Source of the DNA: Gammaproteobacteria bacterium
GTDB lineage: Bacteria; Pseudomonadota; Gammaproteobacteria; UBA4575
Assembly (NCBI GenBank): GCA_965221955.1
Contig: CBDCTA010000005.1
Coordinates: 1-64,000, forward strand
DNA length: 64,000 bases
Reading direction: 5' to 3'
Notes under the pieces: model-generated
What the model was told of the DNA's origin: nothing
Databases searched by the model: none
The model's input: the letters and a program-made list of their open reading frames with translations, nothing else
Program-made: the position numbers and the translations under genes
In this document: positions 676-53,943 of the stretch, piece by piece
How positions within the stretch are numbered: the first letter of the stretch is position 1
How the letters are laid out: every line of letters begins with the position of its first letter

Positions 676-776
676 ATGTCCGCTATTGGCCGAAAGCAGA
701 CATAAAATAGGATCAAATAGGTTGGAATCAATTACATACAATAGGAAAATGACTGCTAACGACCCAAAGCGGATAT
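676..776 (+). repeat. Inter-cassette element 1 (A 676-703, B 749-776)
   Basis: ATGTCCGCTATTGGCCGAAAGCAGACAT...GGTTGGAATCAA...ATGACTGCTAACGACCCAAAGCGGATAT. Confidence 0.95.
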
Positions 777-794
777 TTTTATAGTGGGTAGGTT

Positions 795-1499
795 ATGAAC
801 AAAATTGCTTCGTCAATATTAATATTTTCTGTTATCTCCTGTAGTACACCACATCAACAGACCGAGATTTCTAAAGAAGATGATGTTCGTATTGGTCATG
901 TTAAGGGTTGCTGGTTATCGGAATACACATCCGCTGAGGAATCAAAATATGTCCTTCCATATCCAGTTGGCAAAGAATATGTAATTGGCCAGGGCAATTG
1001 TGGAATGTTCACTCATCAACCAGCTTCAATTATGAAAGGAGGATCTGTAGGTGACATACAGTTTGCCTATGATTTTTCAATGCCAATTGGTGACGAAATC
1101 GTTGCTGTAGCGGATGGAGTTGTCATTAATGTAGACGAACTTTGGGATGACAAAACTAATGACGTTACAAAACAAAACTTTATTGCTATAGAACATGATG
1201 ATGGAAGAGTCTCCGCCTATGTGCATTTAACGAGTTTTGGAAGTTTTGTTGAGATCGGAGACAAAGTTGAGCAAGGTCAAATTATTGGTAAAAGCGGTCA
1301 ATCAGGTTACGCACTTGACCCACATTTACATTTTTCTATATTTGAAAAGGATTATAAAGATTGCAATATTAGGGCAATTGAGTACCCCAAAGATTCAATA
1401 CTACATGGGTGTAAGACTGTTCCAGTTACATTTAAAAATGCCGAGCCATTAGATACACCTCCAATAGAAGGCAGAACATATAAAGCAGTACAAAACTAG
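795..1499 (+). CDS. Cassette 1: M23 family metallopeptidase lipoprotein
   Basis: Lipobox-like VISC; YxHL and PHLHF M23 motifs. Confidence 0.85.
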   Translation: MNKIASSILIFSVISCSTPHQQTEISKEDDVRIGHVKGCWLSEYTSAEESKYVLPYPVGKEYVIGQGNCGMFTHQPASIMKGGSVGDIQFAYDFSMPIGDEIVAVADGVVINVDELWDDKTNDVTKQNFIAIEHDDGRVSAYVHLTSFGSFVEIGDKVEQGQIIGKSGQSGYALDPHLHFSIFEKDYKDCNIRAIEYPKDSILHGCKTVPVTFKNAEPLDTPPIEGRTYKAVQN

Positions 1500-1507
1500 A
1501 AATATAG

Positions 1508-1607
1508 ATGTCCGCTTATGGCCGAAAGCGGACAAATTAAAGGGGAAACTGGCTGGATTCAATAAACTATAAACATAATATGACTGCTTACGACCCAAAG
1601 CGGACAT
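1508..1607 (+). repeat. Inter-cassette element 2 (A 1508-1535, B 1580-1607)
   Basis: Same A/B consensus, 44-nt linker. Confidence 0.95.
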
Positions 1608-1647
1608 TAAGAGCAGATATTGGAACTAGTAAGGAGATGTAGTTTTC

Positions 1648-2001
1648 GTGAGTAAAATCGTAATTATTGTAAATATTTTATTACTCTCTATTTCAAATTT
1701 AGCAACAGCCTCAAACTTTCAAAATGATTGTGAGGTGTTGAATAATGATTCATTAGAATGTTCTTTTAGTCTTGATCGTGATCATCCAACTATGTTGATA
1801 AAGGCAGAAAGTCGTTCTGTTTTAGATTCATACAAGCATTCTATTAGAAACACTACAAATGACTTTTGCAAAAATACAAAACATTCGTGGGTTATGTACA
1901 TACTTTTAGATGAGAGCCTTGTTAGTGGCGAAATGTGTAATGGTAAAAAAGCTAAGTGGATAACTTACGAGAAATTTAAAAAAGATGGGTTGGACTTTTA
2001 G
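1648..2001 (+). CDS. Cassette 2: small secreted hypothetical protein
   Basis: AAGGAG RBS upstream, signal peptide, 4 Cys; fills the space between two elements. Confidence 0.75.
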   Translation: MSKIVIIVNILLLSISNLATASNFQNDCEVLNNDSLECSFSLDRDHPTMLIKAESRSVLDSYKHSIRNTTNDFCKNTKHSWVMYILLDESLVSGEMCNGKKAKWITYEKFKKDGLDF

Positions 2002-2003
2002 CA

Positions 2004-2114
2004 ATGTCCGCTTATGACCGAAAGCAGACATAAATTAAGCCATTTGAGGGGATTTCAGGTTGGAATCAATGAAACATAAACTTAATATGACTGCTTACGA
2101 CCCAAAGCGGACAT
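2004..2114 (+). repeat. Inter-cassette element 3 (A 2004-2031, B 2087-2114)
   Basis: Same consensus; A core variant TGACCG; 55-nt linker. Confidence 0.95.
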
Positions 2115-2158
2115 TTATCAAAATTTTTATTCATTATTCTTTTGGCAAAAAGTAGTCA

Positions 2159-2464
2159 ATGAAATATTCGAAAAAAATCGTAATTAAATTCGTACTATTT
2201 ATTTATTTTGTATATTGCGTTTATTTAATTACATTTGCTGGAATAGATTTTAAAGCGCTCGATAATGAAAATTTGTTTATAGCAGTGAGTTATATAGTTG
2301 GATTAATTCTGTGTTTACCTGCGAACATTTGTATATTAGTTCCTGAAAGTTGGATTAGTACAACATTTTCATCTGACTTATGTGTATTTATAATAGGGTT
2401 AATTGTTGCAACATTTGTGGTTTTTGTTGCGTCTAAAATCATCTATTCTCATAAAACCGAATGA
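2159..2464 (+). CDS. Cassette 3: small membrane protein
   Basis: About 3 hydrophobic segments; TGA stop lies inside the next A site. Confidence 0.7.
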   Translation: MKYSKKIVIKFVLFIYFVYCVYLITFAGIDFKALDNENLFIAVSYIVGLILCLPANICILVPESWISTTFSSDLCVFIIGLIVATFVVFVASKIIYSHKTE

Positions 2465-2561
2465 TCGCTATTGGCCGAAAGCGGACAAAATAAGGGACAC
2501 AATGTGTTGGAATCAATTAATAACACGTTCAAAATGACTGCTAACGACCCAAAGCGGACAT
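2461..2561 (+). repeat. Inter-cassette element 4 (A 2461-2488, B 2534-2561)
   Basis: Same consensus, 45-nt linker. Confidence 0.95.
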
Positions 2562-2588
2562 TTTATTTATTTAATAGATCCAATAACG

Positions 2589-2971
2589 ATGCATAAAATA
2601 GCTAATGCTCTCGTTTTACTTGTAGTTTTATCAACCAGTCCCTTAGCCGATGAAGGCAATTCATCAGATAAAGTACGTTTCTATGATTTTCGCGAACTTG
2701 AAACTGCAACAATTAAAAAGGCTGCCTCCAAGGATCTGTATATGGTGTGACAATAATATCTTACGGTAACGATGAAAAATCACGGTCATATTACGAAGTC
2801 TTACAATCACTAACCAGCGAAGAATTTAAGATTCAAGCTTTATTTAGAGCAAAGAAAGATAGCTATGGTAGTGCAGATGTATATTTCAATGGGTACGAGT
2901 ATAAAAACGTTACTGATATTGATCAGCTAACTAAAATACTTGTTTTTGGAATGAAAAATATTTACATCTAA
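2589..2971 (+). pseudogene. Cassette 4: secreted hypothetical protein, frameshifted (or sequencing indel)
   Basis: ATG 2589 gives signal peptide MHKIANALVLLVVLSTSPLA; adding one A to the A5 run at 2715-2719 joins it to ORF 2747-2971. Confidence 0.65.
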
Positions 2972-2993
2972 ACTTCGATGGTTCTAGTATCTA

Positions 2994-3104
2994 ATGTCCG
3001 CTATTGGCCGAAAGTGGACGTAAATTAAACCGTTAAAGGGAGAGTCTGGTTGGATTCAATAAATAAAACATTCAAAATGACTGCTTACGACCCAAAGGGG
3101 ACAT
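2994..3104 (+). repeat. Inter-cassette element 5 (A 2994-3021, B 3077-3104)
   Basis: Same consensus, 55-nt linker. Confidence 0.95.
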
Positions 3105-3134
3105 TAATTTCAGGCAAAAATTAGGGGATATATT

Positions 3135-3631
3135 TTGAAACCAGAAAAATAATTGCTGTAGTAGTAAGACTATTTGCAATTGCATTACTTCTTACTATTG
3201 TTCGAGAATTAATTACAGCATTATGGGTAGTAAATGATTCGGTAAGTCTACGCCAGTATGGATTTATTTTTTTAGTCAGCGGGTTAGTTATAGTTGTATC
3301 TATTTTTCTATGGAACTTCCCTCTTACAATCGCGAAAAGAATTTACCCATTTGCTCTAGAAGACGAGCCTAAACATACATTTAACTCTGATGACTATTAT
3401 CAACTTGGTTTTATCCTATTGGGTATGTATCTATTATTTTATGTTATTTCTGATGGTGTGTTTTGGATTGCATTTACACTATATAGTGGTGAAGAGAAGA
3501 TGTATTCACCGCTGAAAGCTTTAGAGAATAAAGCTTCAATTGTTGCTACTTTTGTTGAGCTTGCTATCGCTCTTTATCTAATATTTGGAGCAAAGGGAAT
3601 CACTAATGCAATAAAGACGATCAGAAAGTGA
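3135..3631 (+). pseudogene. Cassette 5: multi-pass membrane protein, frameshifted near the start (or sequencing indel)
   Basis: AGGGGA RBS then TTG AAA CCA GAA AAA TAA; one extra A in run 3145-3149 gives MKPEKIIAVVVRLFAIALL..., open through ORF 3419-3631. Confidence 0.65.
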
Positions 3632-3641
3632 TTTTAGTATT

Positions 3642-3742
3642 ATGTCCGCTATTGGCCGTAAGCAGACATAAAATGGGACACAGTTGGTTGGAATCAAAGA
3701 ACTACAAATTTAAAATGTCCAGTATCGACCCAAAGCGGACAT
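3642..3742 (+). repeat. Inter-cassette element 6 (A 3642-3669, B 3715-3742)
   Basis: Same consensus, 45-nt linker. Confidence 0.95.
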
Positions 3743-3777
3743 TGGCTAATCGCTTGAAATGAAATTTAAATTGAATT

Positions 3778-4110
3778 GTGAATCCTTTATTTAACCGAAA
3801 TTTATTGGTTGTAACTACATTATTTGGTTTGGCATTAGTTGCATGTATGTTTGCTTGGGACTTTTCATCAAATGACCCAAGGATGGCAGATAATGTTATT
3901 TCAACTGGTGAATTTAATTGGTGGGAGACATTTATAATTTTAGTCGGAATACCATCAATTTTATTAGTTTGGGTTTATTCATTTAAACATGCATTCTCTA
4001 ATGGACGTAGAAAATGGGGTGTACTTATATTTATGTTATGGCCGCTAGCATTTTTCTACGCATGGTTTATTGCTGATGCTGTGATAGATTCTTCAAGAGA
4101 ATCTGGATGA
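3778..4110 (+). CDS. Cassette 6: small membrane protein
   Basis: 3 hydrophobic segments; TGA stop is part of the next A site (ATGACCGCT). Confidence 0.72.
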   Translation: MNPLFNRNLLVVTTLFGLALVACMFAWDFSSNDPRMADNVISTGEFNWWETFIILVGIPSILLVWVYSFKHAFSNGRRKWGVLIFMLWPLAFFYAWFIADAVIDSSRESG

Positions 4111-4206
4111 CCGCTATTGGCCGAAAGCAGACATAATTAGGAAATAACAGGTTGGATTCAATAATTTACAGACTTAAAATGGCTGCTAACGACCCAAAGC
4201 GGACAT
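4107..4206 (+). repeat. Inter-cassette element 7 (A 4107-4134, B 4179-4206)
   Basis: Same consensus, 44-nt linker. Confidence 0.95.
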
Positions 4207-4220
4207 CGGCATAAATCAAA

Positions 4221-4535
4221 ATGGCTACCTACATGAAAACGAAGTTAATCGTTTTGACAGTAACTATTTGGGTTATTTTTCCAATTGTTGTGGGAATCGT
4301 TTATTCATTATTTGAAAGAGAGGATTTGGATATTGCATTGATGAATAATGTTATTAGAGTTGGAATATTAATATTCGCACTACTATCAGCTCTAACACTA
4401 TATCTCTGCACCAAATTTTTACTCAAGACAAGTAAAAAAAATACTGATAAGGCCGTCTCTATTGTTTGTATGTTAGCTACATTGGCAGCAGTCGTTTTAT
4501 TTACACCTGCAATGTTGAATAATTTTATTGTTTAA
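4221..4535 (+). CDS. Cassette 7: small membrane protein
   Basis: 3 hydrophobic segments; fills the inter-element space. Confidence 0.7.
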   Translation: MATYMKTKLIVLTVTIWVIFPIVVGIVYSLFEREDLDIALMNNVIRVGILIFALLSALTLYLCTKFLLKTSKKNTDKAVSIVCMLATLAAVVLFTPAMLNNFIV

Positions 4536-4550
4536 TAGGAAAATAGTTAA

Positions 4551-4637
4551 ATGTCCGCTATTGGCCGAAAGGAGACATCAGGTTGGAAATATCAAAACAA
4601 AGTAGTTTAATGACCGCTAACGACCCAAAGCGGACAT
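4551..4637 (+). repeat. Inter-cassette element 8 (A 4551-4578, B 4610-4637), shortest copy
   Basis: 31-nt linker that still keeps GGTTGGAA 29 nt before B. Confidence 0.95.
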
Positions 4638-4674
4638 TAATCCCGTTTTCCAAAATTAAGTTGATGGTGTAAAA

Positions 4675-5067
4675 ATGATTGTGTTAGAAGTTAAATTGAA
4701 TGGAGAGCTCATCGCTAAAGCTGGTAAAAGTGATTTATGTGTATTGAACACAATAGTTGATGGTGTTGGTGTTTTAGGTGCTGATTCTGCCGGAACTAAA
4801 TCAGAAAAAGAAGGATATAAGACTAGTCTGAGTGTGGGTGGGCTAGGTGTAACAGCTGAGGATGAACCTGGCACACATTACAGTTGGGTTGGTAAACAGA
4901 TAATTAATGTAGGTGATGAGGTATCTATTAAATTTCTAGAATCAGAAAATGCACATGATCCTAAAATCGTAAGAGCATATACACCAGAGGAAAAAGAAAA
5001 GGAAATGAAACTACGCTGGGAAACATCACGGGACTACTATTTAAAATACAAAGACAAATATGAATAG
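4675..5067 (+). CDS. Cassette 8: soluble hypothetical protein
   Basis: 130-aa ORF bounded by elements 8 and 9. Confidence 0.75.
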   Translation: MIVLEVKLNGELIAKAGKSDLCVLNTIVDGVGVLGADSAGTKSEKEGYKTSLSVGGLGVTAEDEPGTHYSWVGKQIINVGDEVSIKFLESENAHDPKIVRAYTPEEKEKEMKLRWETSRDYYLKYKDKYE

Positions 5068-5070
5068 CAA

Positions 5071-5181
5071 ATGTCCGCTATTGGCCGAAAGCAGACATTA
5101 TTAAGATGTTACTAGGACAAGCTGGGTTGGAACAATCAAATTATTCATTCAAAATGACCGCTAACGACCCAAAGCGGACAT
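5071..5181 (+). repeat. Inter-cassette element 9 (A 5071-5098, B 5154-5181)
   Basis: Same consensus, 55-nt linker. Confidence 0.95.
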
Positions 5182-5211
5182 TAGGTTAATCAATTTAAAT
5201 GGGAGGTTGGA

Positions 5212-5787
5212 TTGAATAATTCAAAAAAGACATTTCCTTAAATATCTTTTTGGAGCATTTTTGCAGGTGTTGGGGCAACCCTTGCTGCAATACCTTTTTT
5301 TAGATTTCTCTCACCCAAAGATTATTTAAGTGAAGAATATTCTAAAGATATAAATATTTCTAAACTTAAGCCTGGCCAGGTAATGTCTATTGTTTGGCAC
5401 AATAAGCCAATTTACATTTTGAAACGAGATCAAGATGCTATCAATAGTTTAGAAATTGATAATCCTAAATTGCGTGATACGGCTTCAAGTCAGTCTAAAC
5501 AGCCGGAAAATGCAAAGAATACCTTTCGCTCAATTAAGCCAGAAATACTTGTTGTAGAGAGTATTTGCACACATAAAGGATGCTCTGTTGCGTATGACCC
5601 TCCTGGGAAAAACCGTTTCCCCAAGGACCATGTGTTATCAAAATATGGCGGGTTTTATTGTGCCTGTCATGGGGCTGTTTATGATGCTGCTGGTCGCGTA
5701 TTTAAAAACAATCCTGCACCGCATAATTTAGTTGTGCCTCAGCACGAATTTTTAAATGAACACACAATCAGATTTAGTCACAATTGA
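5212..5787 (+). CDS. Cassette 9: Rieske 2Fe-2S protein, PetA (bc1 iron-sulfur subunit)-like; 5' end disrupted by in-frame TAA 5239-5241
   Basis: CTHKGC and CACHG Rieske boxes, GRVFK-x2-PAPxNL; GGAGG RBS before TTG 5212; N-terminal TM segment upstream of ORF 5383. Confidence 0.85.
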
Positions 5788-5809
5788 ATCAATTATGATT
5801 AATTTAGAA

Positions 5810-5910
5810 ATGTCCGCTATTGGCCGTAAGCGGACATAATTAGGGATGCAATGTGTTGGAATCAATAAATTATAAGTTCAAAATGTCTGCTAACGACCCA
5901 AAGCGGACAC
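5810..5910 (+). repeat. Inter-cassette element 10 (A 5810-5837, B 5883-5910)
   Basis: Same consensus, 45-nt linker. Confidence 0.95.
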
Positions 5911-5946
5911 TTCAGGATCAGTTAATAATATTCAGATAAATCAGAA

Positions 5947-6195
5947 ATGAATCCTATTCCACTTATTATTGTTTGGATAATTCTATTCGCTGTTGTAATA
6001 GGATATGTGGTTTATCGTTTACTTACAGACAAAGAAAAAAGTGGCAAAAAACATTGGCTTTACCCTTTAAATAGCAATCCTGGTGATCCCATGTTCCCCA
6101 AACCAGGCAATATATTTGGCTGGGTAATTTACCTGCTGTTATTACTTCCTATAATTTACGTGATTGGAATGTTAGTAAATGAAAATTTATTCTAG
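5947..6195 (+). CDS. Cassette 10: small 2-TM membrane protein
   Basis: Two hydrophobic segments; bounded by elements 10 and 11. Confidence 0.7.
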   Translation: MNPIPLIIVWIILFAVVIGYVVYRLLTDKEKSGKKHWLYPLNSNPGDPMFPKPGNIFGWVIYLLLLLPIIYVIGMLVNENLF

Positions 6196-6219
6196 TTGGA
6201 TTAACCGCACAAAATATAA

Positions 6220-6330
6220 ATGTCTGCTATTGGCCGAAAGCTGACATAAATTAAGCCACTGAGAGGAATTACAGGTTGGAATCTTTAAAATACTTATTCA
6301 ATATGACCGCTAACGACCCAAAGCGGACAT
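6220..6330 (+). repeat. Inter-cassette element 11 (A 6220-6247, B 6303-6330)
   Basis: Same consensus, 55-nt linker. Confidence 0.95.
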
Positions 6331-6370
6331 TTTCGAGAAGTAGAATTTGTTTGAATAAGTCGTATAGCAC

Positions 6371-6739
6371 TTAACAATCCCTGTATCCTTTCTTTTTCTT
6401 ACACGTTAAAGCTAATTTTTTAGCCTCTTCGATTTCAGAAGGAGTCATATTTGCAGTTATTTTTCTTAAAGCTTCATCTGCTGTCGCGCCTAACCCTTGT
6501 TCTACCGCAAAGCTCACCCACATATATGCATATTGATTGTCCTGGGGTACGCCATTGCCTGTGTGATACGCTTTGCCAATTTTTAATTGACTAATCGCTG
6601 CACCATTCTCTGCAGATTTAAGCGCTTTGAACGCATCTTTTTCCGCTCTCTTAGCAGCCATTTCTTCGGGTGATGAGCAACCTGATAGAACTAAAACGAG
6701 AGCAAGCAAGGCTAGAAAAATGCGTAATTTAGGATTCAT
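6371..6739 (-). CDS. Sel1-repeat lipoprotein (inverted relative to the array)
   Basis: Lipobox LSGC; Sel1-like AENG...YHTGNGVPQD...AYMW; GGAG RBS. Confidence 0.82.
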   Translation of the reverse strand: MNPKLRIFLALLALVLVLSGCSSPEEMAAKRAEKDAFKALKSAENGAAISQLKIGKAYHTGNGVPQDNQYAYMWVSFAVEQGLGATADEALRKITANMTPSEIEEAKKLALTCKKKKGYRDC

Positions 6740-6859
6740 AAATAAGGCTCCATTTCAGCGGGCATGATGATAAATGTTGGCGACAGTACACTATATAGCC
6801 ATTATATGCGAATGTATTTCTATGATGAATGATGTGGATAAGCTAATATTTTCTTTAAC

Positions 6860-6887
6860 TTAAGCGCTAACGACCCAAGGCGGACAT
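6860..6887 (+). repeat. Lone degenerate B site
   Basis: TTAAGCGCTAA-CGACCC-AAGGCGGACAT. Confidence 0.85.
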
Positions 6888-6990
6888 TCGCATATAGTTA
6901 TCATGCTAATACTAAATTTTATACGGACTGATATTTTATAACTAACCTAAAAAATTAGTGTATTGGTTTAGATATTATTATTAGCCGCAT

Positions 6991-7680
6991 TTATATCAGC
7001 GTATTAAGTTCTGATAATGATTTGGTAACAAGATCGGGCTTATAAGAAAGCCGTTCCGAGACATGGTCGTAGCGATTTACCCATATAGAGTTAAACCCGC
7101 ATGCTGAAGCTCCAGCTATATCCCAAGAGTTAGAAGATATAAAACAAATTTTATTTCTAGCTAATGCAAGTTGTTCGCCCATAAATTCATATACTGCTGG
7201 AGATGGTTTATATGTACGAATTAATTCTGTGGAATAGATACCATCTATTAAATGATCAACACCAACTTGTTTTAAAGTAGTGCTGAGTATCTGAGGTGGG
7301 CCATTAGAGAGTACTGCTGTTGTTATTCCATTTTCCTTTAGTAATGTAAGAGCATTCTTTGCATCTTGATAGCAGTCTAATTTTGAATGTTCTAGTAGCT
7401 TGCTTTTAATTTTCTCATCGTCAAATCCATACACATCACAAGCGAAATCAAGTGTGTCTTTTCGAATCTTTTCATAATTCACATACTTATTCATTAGGCT
7501 TAGCAAAGAAGAATATTGTAGGCGTTTAGTCAACCACAATTTATAGATTTCTTGAATGTTTTCACCAAGTTGTTCACTATATTCTAAAAATGGTAAATAT
7601 GGATCAAGAATTAAGCCATAGGCATTAAATATATAAGCTTTAATGTTTTTCATATTTTTCTTCAATAATTTGGTTGGCAA
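6991..7680 (-). CDS. Haloacid dehalogenase type II (HAD) family protein; start more likely at ATG 7653
   Basis: FNAYG (motif I with Asp replaced by Asn), LSNG, YKPSP, SSNSWD. Confidence 0.85.
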   Translation of the reverse strand: MPTKLLKKNMKNIKAYIFNAYGLILDPYLPFLEYSEQLGENIQEIYKLWLTKRLQYSSLLSLMNKYVNYEKIRKDTLDFACDVYGFDDEKIKSKLLEHSKLDCYQDAKNALTLLKENGITTAVLSNGPPQILSTTLKQVGVDHLIDGIYSTELIRTYKPSPAVYEFMGEQLALARNKICFISSNSWDIAGASACGFNSIWVNRYDHVSERLSYKPDLVTKSLSELNTLI

Positions 7681-8093
7681 AGTAGACCGCTATGCGAGAT
7701 TGTCCTAATTAAAATAATATACATCTTGAGCTACTAAATTTTAGGTTGAGTACTCGTCTGGTTATAGTCAAAGAATATATATTTATTGAAAGCAAATACC
7801 TCGTGAGGTCTGTGCGAGGATACTAGAAGCTACAGAAACATTTAATGTAACTTCCACTATTTCGTTTATACAATAACTTTGTTTTGAAGTATAGGTAATG
7901 ATCTGAGGCAGTTAAACTGAAAATCAATATATAGCTGATATAGAACAAAGAAGAGTAGTTTATGAAAGTTTATTCTCTAATATCTTCATAGTTCACTTTA
8001 AGACGAGACAAACAATTAAATGATTGAAACTGTATTCATAGAAATGGTAGGCGCGTCAGCTGTTAACTTTAAATTTTTAAAGAGGTTCATCTG

Positions 8094-8585
8094 ATGATTC
8101 ATGAAGTTGCTGGAGATATTTTATTGACAAAAGCAAAAGCTATTGCTCATGGTGTGGCCCCAAATGACCATTTTAAGAATGGCCTAGCCCTTGAGTTGAG
8201 AGAACAATGGCCAGCAATGGCAAAAGATTTTCGTCATTACGCTAATCAGTCACACCCAAAAACTGGAGAGATTTGGGTTTGGAGTGGTGTGGGTGGGGTG
8301 CGTATTCTCAACTTACTAACACAGGAAGGAGGACACGAACACGGTGCCAAACCAGGTAGAGCCACACTGCCGAATGTCAATCACTGTTTGCGAAGATTGC
8401 GACATGAGCTTGAAAAGGGTGAGATTGCTAGTCTTGCATTACCAAAATTAGCCACTGGTGTTGGCGGTCTGAAGTGGAAAGAAGTGTCCCCATTAATCCA
8501 ACAGCATTTGAGTGATTTATCAATTCCTATATATATCTATACAACTTATCTCAAAGGTCAGAAAGCAAACGAAATAGGCATGTAA
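8094..8585 (+). CDS. Macro domain (Appr-1-p processing) protein
   Basis: GDILL, HGVAPNDHF, LALPKLATGVGGL macro-family motifs. Confidence 0.85.
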   Translation: MIHEVAGDILLTKAKAIAHGVAPNDHFKNGLALELREQWPAMAKDFRHYANQSHPKTGEIWVWSGVGGVRILNLLTQEGGHEHGAKPGRATLPNVNHCLRRLRHELEKGEIASLALPKLATGVGGLKWKEVSPLIQQHLSDLSIPIYIYTTYLKGQKANEIGM

Positions 8586-8598
8586 TTAAACTATTATA

Positions 8599-8626
8599 AT
8601 GTCCGCTATTGGCCGAAAGCGGACAT
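8599..8626 (+). repeat. Terminal A site of the array
   Basis: ATGTCCGCTAT-TGGCCG-AAAGCGGACAT, full consensus. Confidence 0.95.
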
Positions 8627-8742
8627 TTCGAGTTCTCTTAACTTTAATCAGATACGTCATCCATGTTGTAAACTTTGTGAGTGCATCCATGCAGTCGTAC
8701 AATTTCTGTGCTTCCGTCATACATGGAGGCCGAAGCAGACAT
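8627..8742 (+). repeat. Conserved array-end sequence with NCATCCNTGN mini-palindromes, then a degenerate half A site (8728-8742)
   Basis: 8627-8692 aligns without gaps to the reverse complement of 25694-25759. Confidence 0.8.
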
Positions 8743-8757
8743 TATTAATCAGTAAGA

Positions 8758-17151: not shown

Positions 17152-18633
17152 GTGGAAAATAAAGGATTAAGCATGAAACGTATCCAATCTTGGTCAATAT
17201 TCGTAATAAGTTTACTCTTCATCTTAAGTTTAGGGCAGGTAGGGGCTTCTACACATGAAGGAGAGCATAGGAGCACCTTGGAAGATCAGTCAGAAGTCGC
17301 GGTTACTATTTATAACGATCAATTAGCTTTAGTGAAAGACCTACGCACCATTCGTTTGGATAGTGGTTTTAATAAATTGGCGTTTCGTGAAGTGAGTGCC
17401 CAAATGCGACCAGAAACAGCATTATTACGTAGCCTAAACTATCCTGATGGGTTTCGTCTAATCGAACAGAATTTTGATTTTGATCTGTTAACACCGCAAA
17501 AACTATTAGAAAAATATGTCGGTAAAAAAGTCAAAGTAGTGAAAACACATCCAACTACCGGGAAAGAAAAGTTGCTCGATGCAGTTGTGCTAAGTGTCAA
17601 TAACGGGGTGGTATTGCGTATTGGCAATCGTATTGAAACAGGTGTTCCAGGGCGTATTGTATTTGATGAAGTACCAGGTAATTTGCGGGATCGACCAACC
17701 TTGGTTATGCAGCTTAACAGTGCGACTTCGAAAGCACAGCAGTTACAGCTTAGTTATTTAACCGGAGGTCTGTCTTGGAGGGCGGATTATGTAGCTGAGT
17801 TAGATGAGTCAGATGAATTTGTTGATTTAACGGGTTGGGTTACGTTAACCAATCAAAGTGGTGCAACCTATAAAAATGCCAAATTGCAACTTGTAGCCGG
17901 TGATGTAAATCGCGTACAAAATGGTTTTAAAGAGGCTAAGAGAAGATTTGAAATGTTAGCTGAAGAATCTATGGCAGCAGATGCGGATATGGTTGAAGAA
18001 GCTTTATTTGAATATCATTTGTATACCCTACAACGACCCACTACGATAAAAGAAAATCAAACCAAACAGGTTTCATTATTAAGCGCAACAAAAATACCGG
18101 TTAAGAAGGAATTTTTATTAAAAGGTCAGAACTACTACTATCAAAGTTCGTATGGCTCTATTGGGCAAAAAATGAAAGTAGGTGTATTTGTAGAATTTAA
18201 TAACGACAAGGAATCTAATTTAGGTATGCCATTACCGAAAGGAGTGGTGAGGGTTTATAAAAATGATCAATCAGGTAATGCACAGTTTGTAGGTGAAGAC
18301 CGTATTGATCATACACCAAAAAATGAAGAAGTAAGGTTAAAGCTTGGCGATGCCTTTGATGTAACCGCAGATAAAAAACAAACTCATTTCAAAAAAGCAC
18401 ATGCAATTGGTAAGTATAACTATGCATACACCGCTAGTTTTCAAATCGATCTTAAAAATGCTAAAAATCAAGAGGTGGAAGTTGTTGTACAAGAGCCTAT
18501 TCCAGGTGATTGGAAAATGAAAAAGCAAAGCCATGAGCATGAAAAAGTGGCTTCAGGTACTGCGGAGTGGAGAATCAAAGTACCAGCAGAAGGTAAAACC
18601 ACTTTGACATATGAGGTATTGATAAGATATTAG
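17152..18633 (+). CDS. DUF4139 domain secreted protein (copy 1)
   Basis: Signal peptide, VTIYN, LSYLTGGLSWRADY, LPKGVVRVY. Confidence 0.85.
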   Translation: MENKGLSMKRIQSWSIFVISLLFILSLGQVGASTHEGEHRSTLEDQSEVAVTIYNDQLALVKDLRTIRLDSGFNKLAFREVSAQMRPETALLRSLNYPDGFRLIEQNFDFDLLTPQKLLEKYVGKKVKVVKTHPTTGKEKLLDAVVLSVNNGVVLRIGNRIETGVPGRIVFDEVPGNLRDRPTLVMQLNSATSKAQQLQLSYLTGGLSWRADYVAELDESDEFVDLTGWVTLTNQSGATYKNAKLQLVAGDVNRVQNGFKEAKRRFEMLAEESMAADADMVEEALFEYHLYTLQRPTTIKENQTKQVSLLSATKIPVKKEFLLKGQNYYYQSSYGSIGQKMKVGVFVEFNNDKESNLGMPLPKGVVRVYKNDQSGNAQFVGEDRIDHTPKNEEVRLKLGDAFDVTADKKQTHFKKAHAIGKYNYAYTASFQIDLKNAKNQEVEVVVQEPIPGDWKMKKQSHEHEKVASGTAEWRIKVPAEGKTTLTYEVLIRY

Positions 18634-18652
18634 TCTTAATAAAGGATATAAC

Positions 18653-20095
18653 ATGAAAAAAATATCATTTTTGACTTCTACGTTACTATTTTTCTGTCTC
18701 ACGCAAATCGCGGTTGCCGAAGATGAAATACGAAGTACGCTTGAAGATCAACAAGAGGTCGCAGTTACCATCTATAACGAGCAATTAGCACTTGTTAAAG
18801 ATTCAAGACGAATCAAGTTAGATAATGGATTTAATCGCCTTGCATATCGTGAAGTGAGCGCACAAATGCGACCTGAAACCGCGTTACTTCGAAGTATCGA
18901 CCATCCTGATGGGTTTCGTTTGATTGAACAAAATTTTGACTTTGATTTATTAACCCCACAGAAACTTCTAGAAAAATATGTGGGTAAAAAAGTTAGAGTA
19001 GTTAGAACACATCCAACTACTGGTGAAGAAAGAACTGAAGAAGCCGAAGTCTTAAGTGTAAATAATGGTGTTGTGTTAAGGGTTGGAAATCGAGTTGAAA
19101 CCGGTTATCCAGGTCGAATTATTTATGATGAGGTGCCTGAGAATTTGCGCGATCGTCCAACGCTGGTGATTTCGCTGGAAAGTGGTACCTCTAAAACTCA
19201 AGATTTACAGTTAAGTTATTTAACCGGTGGCTTAGGTTGGAAAGCGGACTATGTTGCCGAGTTGGATGAATCAGATCAATTTGTCGATTTGACGGGTTGG
19301 GTTACGTTAACGAACCAAAGTGGTGCCACGTATAAGAATGCTAAATTGCAATTAGTTGCGGGTGATGTGAATCAAGTGCGTCAAGAAATGAATATTCTGC
19401 AGCGGAATATGTCTGGGAAAGTGGGTATGGCAAAAGCAGCAGCACCTGCAATGGTTGAAGAGGGGTTGTTTGAATATCACCTTTATACTTTGCAACGCCC
19501 AACTACTATTTCTCATAATCAAACCAAGCAAGTGTCTTTACTAAGCGCAACCAAAATTCCTGTTAAAAAAGAATTTTTGCTACAAGGTCAAAATTATTAC
19601 TACCGCAGCTCGTATGGGCAAATTGGCCAAAAATTGAAAGTGGGCGTGTTTGTAGAGTTTGAAAATAAAGAAGAGTCTAATCTTGGTATGCCTTTGCCTA
19701 AAGGTGTAGTGCGAGTTTATAAAAATGATCAATCCGGTAATGCACAATTTGTTGGCGAAGATCGTATTGATCATACGCCTAAAAACGAAGAAATTAAGCT
19801 AAAACTTGGCGATGCGTTTGATGTGACGGCAGATAAAAAGCAAACCAACTTTAAAAAAGCGACCGCTATAGGAAAATATAGCCAAGCCTACACCGCAAGC
19901 TTTGAAGTAATATTAAAAAATGCTAAAGATGAAGCAGTGGAAGTCGTAGTTCGTGAACCCATCCCGGGTGACTGGAAAATGAAGCAAGAAAGCCATCAGC
20001 ACAAAAAAGTAGCAGCTGGTACTGCGGAATGGAGAATAAAAGTACCTGCTGAAGGCAAAACTACATTAAGCTATGATGTGTTGGTTCGTTACTAA
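18653..20095 (+). CDS. DUF4139 domain secreted protein (copy 2)
   Basis: Collinear paralog of copy 1 with long identical stretches. Confidence 0.85.
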   Translation: MKKISFLTSTLLFFCLTQIAVAEDEIRSTLEDQQEVAVTIYNEQLALVKDSRRIKLDNGFNRLAYREVSAQMRPETALLRSIDHPDGFRLIEQNFDFDLLTPQKLLEKYVGKKVRVVRTHPTTGEERTEEAEVLSVNNGVVLRVGNRVETGYPGRIIYDEVPENLRDRPTLVISLESGTSKTQDLQLSYLTGGLGWKADYVAELDESDQFVDLTGWVTLTNQSGATYKNAKLQLVAGDVNQVRQEMNILQRNMSGKVGMAKAAAPAMVEEGLFEYHLYTLQRPTTISHNQTKQVSLLSATKIPVKKEFLLQGQNYYYRSSYGQIGQKLKVGVFVEFENKEESNLGMPLPKGVVRVYKNDQSGNAQFVGEDRIDHTPKNEEIKLKLGDAFDVTADKKQTNFKKATAIGKYSQAYTASFEVILKNAKDEAVEVVVREPIPGDWKMKQESHQHKKVAAGTAEWRIKVPAEGKTTLSYDVLVRY

Positions 20096-24653: not shown

Positions 24654-25691
24654 TTGGCTTTATTAACGATGCAAGCAAAAACACAAATTCAAGATACTTT
24701 ATCACGACCTATTCGTGATCTAAGAATTTCGGTTACGGATCGTTGTAATTTTCGTTGCACCTATTGTATGCCGAAAGAAGTGTTCAATTCAGAATATGAG
24801 TTTTTACGCAGAGATGATTTGCTTAGTTTCGAAGAAATCGCTCGAATATCAAAAATTTTCGCAAATATAGGCGTCAAAAAAATTCGTTTAACTGGGGGGG
24901 AGCCCTTATTACGAAAGAATCTTCCAGTTTTAATTAAGCAACTATCAAATATTGATGGAATTGAAGATATCAGTTTAACCACTAATGGTGTTCTTCTAAC
25001 TACTGAAGTTGCGCAGCAATTAAAAGATGCAGGCTTGAAACGCATTACCATTAGTTTAGATGCGCTGGATGACGAAACATTTAAAGCGATAAGCGATGTA
25101 AATTTTAATGTAGAAAAAGTATTAGCCTCTGTAGAACATGCTCAGAACGCAGAGCTTGACCCCATTAAAATTAACATGGTGGTGAAAAAAGGTATTAATG
25201 AACATTCTATTTTGCCAATGGCGAAACATTATCACGGCAGTGGCGTTATTTTACGTTTCATTGAATTCATGGATGTGGGTAGCACCAATCAATGGCAAAT
25301 GGATGATGTGTTTTCTGCTAAAGAAATTGCAAATGTAATTCATCAAGAGTTGCCTATTGAACCTGCAGAAGCTAATTATCACGGTGAAGTGGCAAAACGC
25401 TGGCAATATAAAGATGGTGGTGGAGAAATTGGAATTATTTCTTCTGTGACGCAACCATTTTGCCAAAGCTGCACACGCGCAAGGCTTTCTGCAGAAGGCA
25501 AACTCTATACTTGTTTATTTGCTACACAAGGTAAAGATTTACGCCATCTTGTTCGCGAACAAGCAGACGATAAACATATTCAAGATGTCATTACTGCAAT
25601 TTGGAAAAAACGCAATGATCGTTACTCAGAACTACGAACTTCTGAAACCGTCTTGCTCCCAAAAGTAGAAATGTCTTATATTGGTGGGTAA
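24654..25691 (+). CDS. moaA: GTP 3',8-cyclase MoaA (start probably ATG 24669)
   Basis: CNFRCTYC radical-SAM motif, FCQSCTRAR, C-terminal MSYIGG. Confidence 0.96.
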   Translation: MALLTMQAKTQIQDTLSRPIRDLRISVTDRCNFRCTYCMPKEVFNSEYEFLRRDDLLSFEEIARISKIFANIGVKKIRLTGGEPLLRKNLPVLIKQLSNIDGIEDISLTTNGVLLTTEVAQQLKDAGLKRITISLDALDDETFKAISDVNFNVEKVLASVEHAQNAELDPIKINMVVKKGINEHSILPMAKHYHGSGVILRFIEFMDVGSTNQWQMDDVFSAKEIANVIHQELPIEPAEANYHGEVAKRWQYKDGGGEIGIISSVTQPFCQSCTRARLSAEGKLYTCLFATQGKDLRHLVREQADDKHIQDVITAIWKKRNDRYSELRTSETVLLPKVEMSYIGG

Positions 25692-25759
25692 GCGCATGGA
25701 TGCGCGCATATGATGCCCATCAGGGATGATGTAACAGATTAAAGTTAGGTATTTTCAAA

Positions 25760-25787
25760 ATGTCCGCTTTCGGCCATAAGCGGACAT
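25760..25787 (-). repeat. A site of the solo cassette
   Basis: Reverse complement ATGTCCGCTTA-TGGCCG-AAAGCGGACAT. Confidence 0.95.
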
Positions 25788-25828
25788 TTTAGGTTACTAG
25801 TATTTATAATTAGTTATCTACTTAGAAA

Positions 25829-26116
25829 CTATAAAATATGTCGACGAATTAAAATCCAAGCAAGCGGCAGTAACGCAATCAAAGCCGATATTATTAATGA
25901 AGTTCTAAACGTGCCTTCTCGCGCTTCAATAATACACTGATATACAGCTATTCCTGCAATTACAAAGCTGAGCAACACCGGTATGAGAAACAAAGGTGCT
26001 GTAGACCATGCACCCCATCCATCATAATTGCGAATATATAATTCAATTCCAACAAGAACTGAAACAGGAATCAAGCAAAGAAATTCTAGTATATGCTTTC
26101 GGCCAATAGCGGTCAT
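25829..26116 (-). CDS. Solo-cassette cargo: small 3-TM membrane protein
   Basis: Hydrophobic ORF with ATGA overlap to the upstream gene. Confidence 0.72.
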   Translation of the reverse strand: MTAIGRKHILEFLCLIPVSVLVGIELYIRNYDGWGAWSTAPLFLIPVLLSFVIAGIAVYQCIIEAREGTFRTSLIISALIALLPLAWILIRRHIL

Positions 26117-26754
26117 TGATTAACTGGTTTCCAACGATACCAAGAAATTACTTTCCATTTATCTGCAAACAATAAATTCTGACTTATTCTCTTTGTCTCA
26201 CTTTCCATGATCAACCATCCATTTTGGCTTTTACTAAACTTTCGAGTTTCTGATGAACTATGATTGGCTAATACAATAGTATCAACGTTAAATCGTTTCT
26301 TTAAAATTAAGTTCCCATTCTCACAATGGAAGTCACCATTTTTAATACTTAATGTCTGAGTTCCTTTAGGGGAATTACGTTCCCACATTTTAATACTTAG
26401 CTGATCGTGGTTTGGCTGTTGCAGCTCAGCTACCGTACCAGACAAAACCACTTCACATCTGCTCTGCCATGTCCATCTTTTGCTATGACCTGTCCTATAA
26501 TAATCTTCAAATTCAGGCATTTTTTTCGATAAAAGTTGAAAATCTAAACGATAGCAGGAAAGGATTTGAGCTTTTGGGATTTCAGCATCCACATCATAAA
26601 ATCCTGAAACATTGGGGCATTGATTATTTTTATTTTCGTTTTCTAATTTTGACCACTCTATAGGATACTCAACGATTACATCCTCCATATACATGGAACA
26701 TGAGGTCAGTAAAATAATATGCATATAGATGATTGAAATTGAAATCACACGCAT
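26113..26754 (-). CDS. Solo-cassette cargo: hypothetical lipoprotein
   Basis: Lipobox LTSC; starts 29 nt after the B site. Confidence 0.75.
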   Translation of the reverse strand: MRVISISIIYMHIILLTSCSMYMEDVIVEYPIEWSKLENENKNNQCPNVSGFYDVDAEIPKAQILSCYRLDFQLLSKKMPEFEDYYRTGHSKRWTWQSRCEVVLSGTVAELQQPNHDQLSIKMWERNSPKGTQTLSIKNGDFHCENGNLILKKRFNVDTIVLANHSSSETRKFSKSQNGWLIMESETKRISQNLLFADKWKVISWYRWKPVNQ

Positions 26755-26783
26755 GTTTCAAGAGCCAATCTTTAGTGTGCTAA

Positions 26784-26811
26784 ATGTCCGCTTTGGGTCG
26801 TTAAAGGTCAT
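26784..26811 (-). repeat. B site of the solo cassette, abutting the moaB stop codon
   Basis: Reverse complement ATGACCTTTAA-CGACCC-AAAGCGGACAT. Confidence 0.93.
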
Positions 26812-27336
26812 TTATTTTTCTTTAAGCCGTGGCATCAACTCCACCAAGTTACATGGCCGACTTCTATAATCGAGCTGGTGTGAAATCAATTTATCCCAGG
26901 CTTCTGCACAAGCGCCTGCAGAGCCCGGTAAACAAAATATATACGTTGCATTGGCAACGCCTGCAAAAGCACGGGATTGCAGGGTGGAAGTTTTAATCGT
27001 TTCATAAGACAATACGCGAAACATTTCACCAAAACCGGTAATTTCTTTATCCAGCAAAGGGCGAATGGCTTCAGGGGTACCGTCTCGTCCGGTTACACCT
27101 GTTCCACCTGTAGTCAGTACGACATCAGACTTTTCCTCAGCAATCCATTTGGCTACTACGGCGCGAATTTTGTAGATATCATCCGGTACAATAATTTTTT
27201 CACGTAAGTCATGACCAGCTGTGGTTAGACGATCGCAAAGTAATTTACCGGACTTGTCGTCTGCTTCTGTGCGGGTATCTGATATTGTTAGAACCGCGAC
27301 ATTTAAAGGCTTAAAAGACCGTTCGTTGTTACTCAT
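26812..27336 (-). CDS. moaB: Molybdenum cofactor biosynthesis protein B
   Basis: TISDTR, TTGGTG-x-TGRD-x-TPEA, CLPGS. Confidence 0.95.
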   Translation of the reverse strand: MSNNERSFKPLNVAVLTISDTRTEADDKSGKLLCDRLTTAGHDLREKIIVPDDIYKIRAVVAKWIAEEKSDVVLTTGGTGVTGRDGTPEAIRPLLDKEITGFGEMFRVLSYETIKTSTLQSRAFAGVANATYIFCLPGSAGACAEAWDKLISHQLDYRSRPCNLVELMPRLKEK

Positions 27337-27405
27337 ATATAATAGTAGTTAAATTAAATATTCTATTTACTTAATGTAGCGTACTTAGCATTCAATGTCA
27401 TAGAA

Positions 27406-27843
27406 ATGAAAGTCGAAATTAGAGAATCGCAATATGATCCATGGTATGAAGCTTGTGTCCATGAAGAAGAATCTCTACGTAAAGGAGAGCACGGCGCTAA
27501 ATCTATTTTTATTGGTTCGATGCGAGATATGAATGAGGGAGATGCTGTTACTTCAATGGTGTTAGAGCATTATCCAGAGATGACGCAAAAGCACTTAGAG
27601 GCCATTGCGACAGAAGCATTAAAAAAATTTGATATTTTAGATGTACTTATTCTTCATCGAGTAGGCGAAGTATTTCCTAGTGATCCGATTGTATGTGTAG
27701 TGGTGTGGTCACTACATCGTGGAGCTGCATATGATGCAAACCGCTTTATTATGGAGGATTTAAAGTCTAAAGCACCGTTTTGGAAAAAAGAGACATTAGC
27801 AAGTGAGGCTAACCGTTGGGTGGAGAAAAACACACCTGGATAA
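27406..27843 (+). CDS. moaE: Molybdopterin synthase catalytic subunit
   Basis: LEHYPEM, HRVG, HR-x-AA, LKSKAPFWKKE. Confidence 0.95.
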   Translation: MKVEIRESQYDPWYEACVHEEESLRKGEHGAKSIFIGSMRDMNEGDAVTSMVLEHYPEMTQKHLEAIATEALKKFDILDVLILHRVGEVFPSDPIVCVVVWSLHRGAAYDANRFIMEDLKSKAPFWKKETLASEANRWVEKNTPG

Positions 27844-52421: not shown

Positions 52422-53579
52422 ATGAGTGAAATGTCCACTTATACGGTAATTAGTACCGGTCAGCTTCAAGAGGATTTTGGCCTCGAAGAGGTTAAAAATA
52501 GCTTCGCAAAATTGTTTAAAACCACTCCTGAAAAGGCGAGTGCTTATGTTGGCGTGAAAAAGATTTTAAAGAAAAATCTTGATCATTCAAAAGCGCATAA
52601 ATTGAAAGCACGCCTTGAACAGATCGGTATGGTGGTTGCACTGAAAGAAAATAAGCAAGCAACTTCTGCAGATGCAATGTCTTTATCGGTTGAAGACAAA
52701 GCACCCACTAAAGAAGATACGACGATGACGTGTCCTAAATGTAATTTACGTCAAGAGAAGGCAGAGCAGTGTTCGGGTTGTGGCGTATATGTGGAAAAAT
52801 TACTAGCACCTTCTGCAACGGATACGGTAATTGGGCAATCCACTATAATGAAAGCACCTCCAATTGAAGATCCGTCAAATGCTACGGGCATTACGACGGC
52901 CCCCACCATGCAAACTTCAAGTGGTGCTAAGGGAATTAATCTTGTAGGTATTGCCGCTGCAGCAGGTGTTGCTGTAGTAGGTGCGTTGTTATGGAAATAT
53001 ATTACCGTTTGGTTTGGTTATGAGTTTGCGATTATTGCAATTGGCATTGGCGCAGGTGTGGGCATTGCTGCAGTGATGTTTGAATCGGAAGGTGTTGCTA
53101 CTGGAATAATTTGTGCAATTTTTACTTTGCTTTCTATTTTTGGTGGCAAATATATGGCGATGTCTTATTTGCAAGAAACTTGGTCGCAAGATATAACAGC
53201 GGCCATAGAAGGTGAAGAAGATATTTATAGAGATTATTATCAGCAAGACTTAAAAGCTGCTGAAGCCTTTGGTGATGGAATTGAAGACAAAAAAGAGCTT
53301 GTTGCATTCCTTAAAGAGCATGGCTATGAAGAATATTATGATGTTGACAATATTTCTGAAGCTGAAATCGCAGACTTTAACGAATATGTGGTTCCGCATT
53401 TAAAAAGAATTTCTGAAACGACCCCGAGTTTTGAAGAATGGTTGCAGGGTAGTTTCCAAGAGAATGTTGAAGATCTCTCTACTTCTTCATTAGTGTTTTT
53501 AGATTTTGGTTTAATGGGAATCTTGTTTCTACTTTTAGGTGTGGGCACTGCATTTAAGATGGGAATGGGTGAAGGATAA
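52422..53579 (+). CDS. Membrane protein with zinc-ribbon motif
   Basis: CPKC-x8-CSGC, several TM segments. Confidence 0.78.
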   Translation: MSEMSTYTVISTGQLQEDFGLEEVKNSFAKLFKTTPEKASAYVGVKKILKKNLDHSKAHKLKARLEQIGMVVALKENKQATSADAMSLSVEDKAPTKEDTTMTCPKCNLRQEKAEQCSGCGVYVEKLLAPSATDTVIGQSTIMKAPPIEDPSNATGITTAPTMQTSSGAKGINLVGIAAAAGVAVVGALLWKYITVWFGYEFAIIAIGIGAGVGIAAVMFESEGVATGIICAIFTLLSIFGGKYMAMSYLQETWSQDITAAIEGEEDIYRDYYQQDLKAAEAFGDGIEDKKELVAFLKEHGYEEYYDVDNISEAEIADFNEYVVPHLKRISETTPSFEEWLQGSFQENVEDLSTSSLVFLDFGLMGILFLLLGVGTAFKMGMGEG

Positions 53580-53583
53580 AATT

Positions 53584-53943
53584 ATGAGTACAGCAGAATT
53601 TGATAAATTTGATCTTGAAGGTTTGTCGCTTGAGGACATAGAACCTGCCAAACCAGTAGAGGTGGAACAGAAAGTGCCACAAGATTTGCCGCAAGAGATT
53701 GAGGAAATTCAGGTAAAACCTGTTGAACAGGAACCAGTAAAGAAAGCAGCTGAGCCTATGCCGCAGGCACAAAATACACAGAATGCAGAAAGTGCTGATG
53801 TGCCAGAAGGCAAAATGGTTTGTCCTAAATGTGAGCTTTTGCAAGATAAAGCTGAGCAGTGTTCGGGTTGTGGTGTATATGTTGCTAAAGCCCAAGCACA
53901 AGTAGGTCAATCTAAAATTCAAATTACCTCAACAAAATTCTAG
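53584..53943 (+). CDS. Acidic protein with the same zinc-ribbon motif
   Basis: AAGGA RBS then ATG; CPKCELLQDKAEQCSGC. Confidence 0.72.
   Translation: MSTAEFDKFDLEGLSLEDIEPAKPVEVEQKVPQDLPQEIEEIQVKPVEQEPVKKAAEPMPQAQNTQNAESADVPEGKMVCPKCELLQDKAEQCSGCGVYVAKAQAQVGQSKIQITSTKF

Follow-up and report, generated by a model that had tools for sequence, protein, structure and literature searches.

Between moaB and moaA, an uncultured marine gammaproteobacterium carries two orphan genes that are framed by 28-nt palindromes. What is this insert, how might it have got there, and how might its genes be expressed? We addressed these questions in a window of 64,000 nucleotides (nt) from contig CBDCTA010000005.1 of assembly GCA_965221955.1, and in the rest of the genome and its relatives. 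(Coordinates refer to the window unless another contig is named; names such as C11 refer to contigs of the assembly, and names such as G011 to related genomes.) An earlier note on this DNA had described the insert as a solo unit, with a B site, two genes, and an A site, at a second locus of a system that also forms an array, and had suggested that its genes could be transcribed from moaB.

The solo cassette is real, and it is a clean second-locus example of a cassette system that is integron-like but lacks an integrase. We think it probable, with some reservations, that the insert, with its two genes, belongs to a family of promoterless cassettes with 28-bp palindromic sites that is spread throughout the genome, that it was assembled by recombination at those sites, and that it is expressed by read-through and translational relay from moaB. 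The sequence comparisons show the site boundaries, the turnover of the cargo, and the hot-spot behaviour; the enzyme, the crossover, the order of events, and the expression route are inferences.

A two-gene cassette and its site family

As the earlier note had it, the B site follows the moaB stop codon immediately, and two overlapping genes and then an A site come next (Table 1). The two genes share 4 nt (ATGA). The note had missed a third site, a degenerate A-type site that we call A'. This site supplies the start codon and the first codons of gene 2, and its ATG overlaps the TGA of gene 1. A 41-nt spacer separates gene 2 from the A site. Beyond the A site lies a conserved element, END, which the note had placed 2 nt from the moaA stop codon. 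The element is there, and the gap is 0 nt: the second END hairpin (GCGCATCCATGCGC, 25705-25692) directly touches the stop codon of moaA (25691-25689). Against a profile built from this genome's own END copies, with this copy among the seeds, it scores E = 5e-18.

Table 1. Features of the moaB-moaA cassette, its neighbours, and the array in the same window
Feature	Position	Strand	Description
moaB	27336-26812	-	174 amino acids (aa); upstream gene; ends in TAA, directly followed by the ATG of the B site
GTTG within moaB	26839-26836	-	Register matches the TTG start codon of the array linkers
B site	26811-26784	-	ATGACCTTTAACGACCCAAAGCGGACAT; 28-nt imperfect palindrome; left cassette boundary; site profile E = 4.4e-8
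Mini open reading frame (ORF)	26811-26758	-	From the ATG of B; 17 codons and TGA; stop 3 nt ahead of the gene 1 ATG
Cargo gene 1	26754-26113	-	ORF of 213 aa
A' site	26116-26089	-	ATGACCGCTATTGGCCGAAAGCATATAC; degenerate A-type site; left boundary of the gene 2 unit
Cargo gene 2	26116-25829	-	95 aa; predicted small membrane protein
A site	25787-25760	-	ATGTCCGCTTATGGCCGAAAGCGGACAT; 28-nt near-perfect palindrome; right cassette boundary
END	25759-25692	-	Conserved 68-nt element with two stem-loops; hairpins at about 25731-25718 and 25705-25692
moaA	24654-25691	+	345 aa; convergent downstream neighbour
Window array	676-8703	+	A-linker-B-gene repeats; 24 sites; ends with A (8599-8626) and END (8628-8703)

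It was fair to call the two genes orphans. Neither protein matched any Pfam family, and gene 1 has a relative in just 1 of 40 related genomes, a distant one with 34% identity. The N-terminus of the gene 1 protein resembles a lipoprotein signal (LLTSC). No Rfam family reached its gathering score anywhere in the window, and the matches at the locus were at chance level. As to the GTTG inside moaB, it does share the register of the array linkers, with its TTG 27 nt before the ATG of B, and the note's caution that this might be chance was justified: the TTG is a leucine codon in the conserved tail of MoaB, where relatives have GAATTG or GAACTC. We also rejected GTTG as a target motif for insertion, since it is a codon of MoaB and no conserved motif is found upstream of solo B sites.

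The same sites occur throughout the genome (2.69 Mb in 29 contigs; 96.6% complete), which bears out the idea that such units occupy more than one chromosomal position. There are 174 sites (81 A and 93 B) in 48 clusters on 18 of the 29 contigs. Nine clusters have at least five sites, and 11 are simple two-site B..A pairs. In the window itself, the 12-mer AAGCGGACATTT, taken from the shared arm, occurs 41 times with up to two mismatches, versus 7.06 ± 2.36 times in 100 shuffled sequences, none of which reached 41. A and B share the arms ATGNCNGCT and AGCGGACAT and differ in their centres (TTGGCCG in A and ACGACCC in B). The linkers from A to B are mainly 45 or 55 nt long (range 31-55). The window array, whose neighbours are a glutamate-synthase-like gene and prc, has 11 A-linker-B-gene repeats, then a more irregular tail, and then the final A and END. 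Across the family, many of the cargo genes encode small membrane proteins, lipoproteins, or proteins of unknown function.

END is present in 62 copies. It lies either right after terminal A sites, pointing outward, or inverted at 16 or 39 nt before the first B, and many cassettes and arrays are enclosed by inverted END pairs. There is at least one empty copy of this arrangement, with inverted END, a site, and END (C29:575432-575615). The loops of both hairpins read ATCC(A/C)T, and both stems covary: for hairpin 1, 153 of 175 cells are paired versus 131.0 ± 3.4 after shuffling, and for hairpin 2, 158 of 174 versus 137.4 ± 2.6 (0 of 2000 shuffles reached the observed value for either stem). END resembles palindromic miniature inverted-repeat transposable elements of the ERIC, Correia, or RUP type in its copy number and in its inverted pairs around a central site. 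Unlike those elements, END pairs frame cassettes or whole arrays, and each END has two local hairpins with fixed loops; neither a transposase nor a target duplication was recognised. Often, END adjoins a partial site at its outer edge, about 20 nt long and missing the first 8 nt (TAATTGGCCGAAAGCGGACAT; for example at 8729-8744 in the window and at 2703-2730 of record L010 from G007). These partial sites hint at a fixed breakpoint near site position 8/9.

Sites as exchange boundaries

Unit boundaries coincide with the sites, both within this genome and between relatives. The unit from A' through gene 2 to A is identical at 347 of 358 positions (97%) to C11:3056-2700. The homology runs from 1 nt before A' to the last base of A. 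The upstream neighbours of the two copies differ, and downstream there is a linker and a B site on C11 and END at moaA. A gene 2 cassette with its own A' and A is also found at another locus of G011, with a protein that is 73% identical, and the moa locus of G011 is empty. Similarly, the first cassette of the window array, which encodes an M23 peptidase, recurs on C26 with 86% identity as a bare B..A unit, without the adjoining linker and without END.

Cassette content also varies between strains. Contigs C14 and C23 are two co-binned haplotypes of the xerD-dsbC-side locus. They share three blocks with 99.5% (7621 nt), 99.1% (2730 nt), and 98.7% (1492 nt) identity. Between the blocks, one haplotype has about 1.5 kb of cassettes and the other has about 11 kb, and C14 additionally holds a 1034-nt A-to-A unit. 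All four block ends are inside a site or at most 5 nt from the edge of one. The single A site of C23 resembles a mosaic of the two A sites of C14, with the switch between positions 4 and 10 and one additional difference that fits neither C14 site. As a side note on the assembly, the near-identical stretches C14:1588-16000 and C23:3228-26000 (99%) lie in one bin with differing arrays, and the bin's contamination is given as 4.3%. Because two versions of the xerD-dsbC region were binned together, the bin mixes at least two strains.

The moaB-moaA interval is itself a hot spot. We found orthologues of moaB in 31 of 41 genomes and read the region downstream of moaB in 23: this genome, all 21 hits within the family, and G038 (seven distant hits, L028-L034, were excluded). 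In 18 of the 23, moaA adjoins moaB, with gaps of 33, 35, 93, 99, 117, 398, 409, 436, 513, 646, 667, 957, 1058, 1085, 1120, 1225, 1836, and 2956 nt. A, B, or END elements lie downstream of moaB in 8 of the 23 genomes, and the content is different in each. The closest relative, G011 (MoaB 96% identical), has a B-type site at the moaB stop and END at the moaA stop with nothing between them, in a gap of 99 nt. In G014 (MoaB 95% identical), the orthologous site and END are both present in decayed form, and two other ORFs separate them. In G007 the order is partial B, inverted END, B, other cargo, A, END, partial A, and END. G008 and G015 have inverted arrays, and in G002 an inverted END abuts moaB. 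In G013 and G023, whose genomes lack any B motif, the gaps are 35 and 33 nt. The earlier note had proposed this comparison and had expected either empty sites or different cargo in relatives. Both occur. In none of the genomes read did we see the same genes without the sites, and the gap is not invariant. Turnover at solo loci is not limited to moaB: a second solo locus, on C18, is 580 nt long in this genome and 87 nt in G011, and there the B site provides the TGA of the upstream gene.

Could these exchanges have occurred without a dedicated enzyme? Repetitive extragenic palindromic (REP) sequences, along with the related bacterial interspersed mosaic elements (BIMEs) and REPINs, are palindromes of 20-40 nt that occur between genes in high copy in many Proteobacteria, often as doublets with conserved linkers, and are associated with RAYTs (REP-associated tyrosine transposases). 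The A and B sites are likewise short imperfect palindromes in high copy between genes (174 sites), with 30 A-linker-B doublets. They might be structural or regulatory palindromes (mRNA ends or protein-binding sites) that do not transpose on their own, and the units might be exchanged by RecA-dependent or illegitimate recombination between repeats, for instance after uptake of DNA from relatives. This would fit with the lack of an identified enzyme and with the presence of the palindrome family in very different bacteria (both described below), and the mosaic A site of C23 is compatible with either model. However, identical units lie in unrelated contexts, where the homology ends exactly at the edges of the sites and the flanks have nothing in common, whereas general recombination depends on homologous sequence to either side. 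This weakens the explanation. Also, B..A units sit flush against the stop codons of housekeeping genes that are unrelated to each other, and a directed process is suggested by the strict order of B, gene, and A and by the quantised lengths of the linkers. Unlike REP sequences, these sites bracket single variable genes and mark exact exchange boundaries, one type of site is read through by a leader ORF (see below), and there is no associated RAYT. Overall, we consider a REP-like origin to be unlikely, though it is the main competitor.

If the sites are instead the substrates of site-specific recombination, as we favor, then cassettes would be gained, lost, and exchanged through breakage and joining inside A and B. 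Some enzyme would perform conservative recombination, with the crossover in or beside the parts that the sites share. Units would thereby stack as arrays (A-linker-B-gene-A and so on) or stay single beside housekeeping genes. At moaB, an older docking structure of B plus END, which is still empty in G011, might have received gene 1, and the A'-gene 2-A unit might have been added later, at the A site of gene 1.

A possible translational leader

Each of the 30 A-linker-B units has a start codon within a conserved GGTTGG; the ATG of B follows 27 nt downstream, in the same frame. The start codon is TTG in 28 units, CTG in one, and GTG in one. This leader frame is open in all 30 units, compared with 9 and 17 units for the two shifted frames. 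In 27 of the 30 units, a purine-rich motif that resembles a Shine-Dalgarno (SD) sequence lies 4-16 nt upstream of the leader start. Both of the 31-nt linkers follow A sites with the arm variant AAAGGAGACAT (4551-4578 in the window and C23:18598-18625), and this variant supplies the SD, with AGGAG nine nt before the leader TTG. At the other end, the ORF through B stops between -8 and +20 nt from the first cargo start codon in 29 of 36 units. With shuffled spacers, this number is 19.3 ± 2.5, with a maximum of 27 in 1000 shuffles.

In the solo unit, the end of moaB stands in for the first half of the leader. The chain of stops and starts is unbroken: TAA/ATG at the ORF through B, TGA-aac-ATG at gene 1, and ATGA at gene 2. 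There is no excess of promoters or terminators within 25400-27500. Together, these two results support the earlier note's idea of moaB-driven expression, and the sequence is consistent with transcription of the cargo from moaB. We propose a translational relay from moaB to the ORF through B, gene 1, and gene 2. Read-through transcripts from moaB would carry the cargo, and ribosomes that end at the moaB TAA would restart at the ATG of B. The 17-codon ORF stops just ahead of gene 1, and the overlap of the gene 1 stop with the gene 2 ATG would complete the relay.

There are precedents for part of this scheme. In ORF-11 of attI1, from class 1 integrons, and in synthetic bicistronic leaders, the cargo gene begins where a short preceding ORF, which has a ribosome-binding site of its own, comes to its stop; this allows the translation of cassettes that lack their own initiation signals. 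The leader described here also ends at the cargo start. Unlike in those systems, each cassette brings its own leader, with an SD, a TTG, and about 20-30 codons through B. If the leader is truly portable, then any captured ORF would be expressed from its neighbour's transcript, and the relay, if real, would be a natural way to express arbitrary captured genes.

Candidate enzymes, known systems, and the breadth of the palindrome

Several results weigh against the explanation that we favor. In this genome, the only recombinases that we found are XerC, XerD, one phage-type integrase, and one large serine recombinase, and no recombinase was found to track the sites. The phage-type integrase has a close relative in G014 only, and the large serine recombinase is found elsewhere only in G010, G011, and G019. 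G010 is complete and has 50 B motifs, and it has just three tyrosine recombinases (XerD, XerC, and one weak third). The centres of A and B differ, and ordinary two-step tyrosine recombination between them would not tolerate that. A folded, single-stranded substrate is unsupported, because the arms of A and B show no covariation beyond the consensus: shuffled partners pair equally well, and the test for pairing within A, taken alone, was borderline (96/2000). We saw neither an excision circle nor an empty allele from the same strain in four sequencing runs and in metagenome contigs. Finally, in metagenome contigs with intermediate guanine-cytosine (GC) content, the B site does not start with ATG, so the leader ORF may be special to this AT-rich lineage, or it may be a coincidence.

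The search for excision covered 24000-28200 in contigs from the four runs. The pieces were short, and most of the joints had sides of 21-29 nt (one had 38). Joints of repeat length come from other cassette loci and are uninformative about excision. In one run, there were contigs over moaA and over moaB, none over gene 1, and none that bridged the gap, and we draw no conclusion from this. The end of moaB from this strain had 0 exact matches among metagenome contigs.

We also looked for mobilising enzymes more broadly. Y1_Tnp, Transposase_20 of IS110, rve, RVT_1, and Cas1 were not found in this genome. When its 2359 ORFs were compared to each other, there was no multi-copy transposase. The repeated genes were AlkB-like: the only multi-copy family of at least 380 aa comprises three AlkB-like alkane hydroxylases (C26:24488-25642, C29:141322-142509, and C29:202077-203219), which suggests a hydrocarbon-degrading lifestyle. 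Among 646 ORFs around 80 metagenome loci with the core of B, no recombinase family stood out as a recurrent neighbour. One candidate came from an Agrobacterium plasmid, where an ISNCY transposase abuts an A/B-like sequence; it has no relative in this genome, and we rejected it.

By the tests that we ran, the system is not an integron, a dif module, or a REP/RAYT system. The similarity to integrons, including clusters of attC sites lacking an integron integrase (CALINs), is nevertheless close. In both cases, there are small, mostly promoterless single-gene units, each with its own site module, in head-to-tail arrays that vary between close relatives and carry small membrane proteins, lipoproteins, and proteins of unknown function. 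An array with unusual attC sites that are moved by IntI was one hypothesis. However, IntI (TIGR02249) is above the cut-off in just 6 of 41 genomes (G013, G015, G025, G035, G039, and G040), and five of the six lack the sites. It was not found in this genome or in the complete, site-rich genomes G001, G010, G014, G019, and G022. There is no RYYYAAC...GTTRRRY frame at the unit ends, and each site is its own palindrome. Unlike the R''-L''...L'-R' hairpin of attC, the joint here is two 28-bp self-palindromes and a linker. A does not pair better with its own B than with shuffled partners (622 of 840 cells versus 626.7 ± 2.4), and no covariation was seen for this pairing or for that of B with A across the cargo; a long hairpin of A with B folded in one of two units. 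Also unlike in integrons, units lie singly as well, at dozens of unrelated intergenic places, and every unit has a leader ORF of its own.

The variant of this hypothesis in which XerC and XerD move the units as dif modules has its own attractions, as the 28-bp sites can be read as 11-6-11, like dif, and XerC and XerD are the only recombinases that are common to all site-bearing genomes. These genes are present in genomes with and without the sites. The pdif sites of dif modules resemble the host's dif, and the modules lie on plasmids with oppositely oriented bounding sites. Here, A and B are unrelated to dif, and the sites are co-oriented, chromosomal, and in long arrays. This genome has a normal dif (C4:59807, ACTTCGCATAATATATATTATGTTAAAT) that has no arm in common with A or B. 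In Acinetobacter, gene modules are reported to lie between 28-bp 11-6-11 sites and to be shuffled between replicons by XerC/XerD, without a module-borne recombinase (PMC10132070, PMC13141974, PMC12907356). The likeness extends to the 28-bp length, the 11-6-11 reading, and the lack of a recombinase on the module. We consider both the integron and the dif versions to be largely refuted, with very little chance of being correct. The dif site happens to lie about 5 kb from a small cassette cluster (C4:64595-65817); this is proximity only, without any sequence relation.

Mobilisation of single strands by a histidine-hydrophobic-histidine (HUH) enzyme, of the IS200/IS605 or RAYT type, would make B and A the left and right subterminal hairpins of a passenger element. 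Two similar, co-oriented hairpins do bracket each unit, and units include both of them entirely. The conserved loops and covarying stems of END are also what one might expect. But Y1_Tnp, which this genome lacks, is present in 4 of the 24 genomes of the family, without correlation with the sites, and one of the four genomes is site-less. The three Y1_Tnp loci that we inspected have no sites within 1.5 kb. A search for Y2_Tnp gave no match in this genome, though its control gave no match either. And as noted above, solo B sites are not preceded by the conserved motif that is expected for IS200/IS605. Such a mechanism seems highly improbable to us.

How far does the palindrome extend? The B motif is present in 13 of the 14 genomes of the genus, in 6 of the family's 10 other genera (with as many as 114 copies), and in a second family. 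(Within the family, 19 of 24 genomes have it and 5 do not.) The exact 22-nt core of B is found in at least 120 metagenome contigs. In the 80 metagenome loci with this core, the GC content is 33-64%, and B is usually in a doublet with a second palindrome 17-18 nt upstream. Among E. coli genomes, 380 of 5426 have an A-like palindrome, and so do 217 plasmid records, most of which come from Klebsiella and Pantoea. We opened one E. coli case (NZ_CP025892.1, 4001-4031; record L125), in which the A-like ATGTCCGCTGTTGGCACAAAGCGGACA lies in a prophage region, between a gene pair (AbiH plus an unknown gene) and a DUF977 gene.

Phages or other elements might also provide the enzyme. The one lead here is that two contigs from viral collections, L170 and L173, encode a serine recombinase that is 41-42% identical to the one in this genome (C26:85304-86926), with a DUF2924 partner, and have double palindromes of the A/B family, 17 nt apart, about 120-220 nt past the stop of the recombinase (L170:247-330 and L173:7170-7445). 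These could be the attachment sites of such elements, and a large serine recombinase of this family, borne by a phage or another element, might act in trans on the palindromes of the cassettes. The distribution of the enzyme fits in part, as it is present in this genome, G010, G011, and G019. We did not find it in G001, G014, or G022, which are complete and rich in sites, or in another 12 genomes with the B motif. In this genome, no site lies within 2.9 kb of the gene, and just 2 of 23 viral contigs show the adjacency. Serine recombinase sites are also usually longer, with a 2-bp crossover. We view this route as improbable.

We did not find a published description of the A and B sites in the full-text literature that we searched; the matches to site strings were coincidences with primers. 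A bolder reading, which we put forward tentatively and consider rather doubtful, is that this is a widespread, undescribed cassette system of Proteobacteria. The pair of 28-bp palindromes would be the joint, the enzyme would come from outside the known families that move cassettes (it might be a host factor or a new recombinase), and the joint would, in this lineage, also serve as a portable leader for translation initiation. The same 22-nt core is found in contigs with 33-64% GC, in prophage regions of E. coli, and in plasmids of Klebsiella and Pantoea, so whatever factor is responsible may be widespread and have escaped notice. Integrons are the textbook collectors of single genes, and dif modules are a second set. 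A/B joints would be a third, at about 48 places in a 2.7-Mb genome, including beside essential cofactor genes. The enzyme, once found, would make a new route of gene flow accessible to study, and it might become a new recombination tool.

Two other repeats in the window are separate from the site family. At 17173-20095, there are adjacent paralogues of about 485 aa each, with 75-80% DNA identity and a spacing of 1462 nt (repeat families D6, D7, and D9). At 52731-53899, a CxxC...CxxC coding motif that resembles a zinc ribbon is present in two copies, 1090 nt apart (D10).

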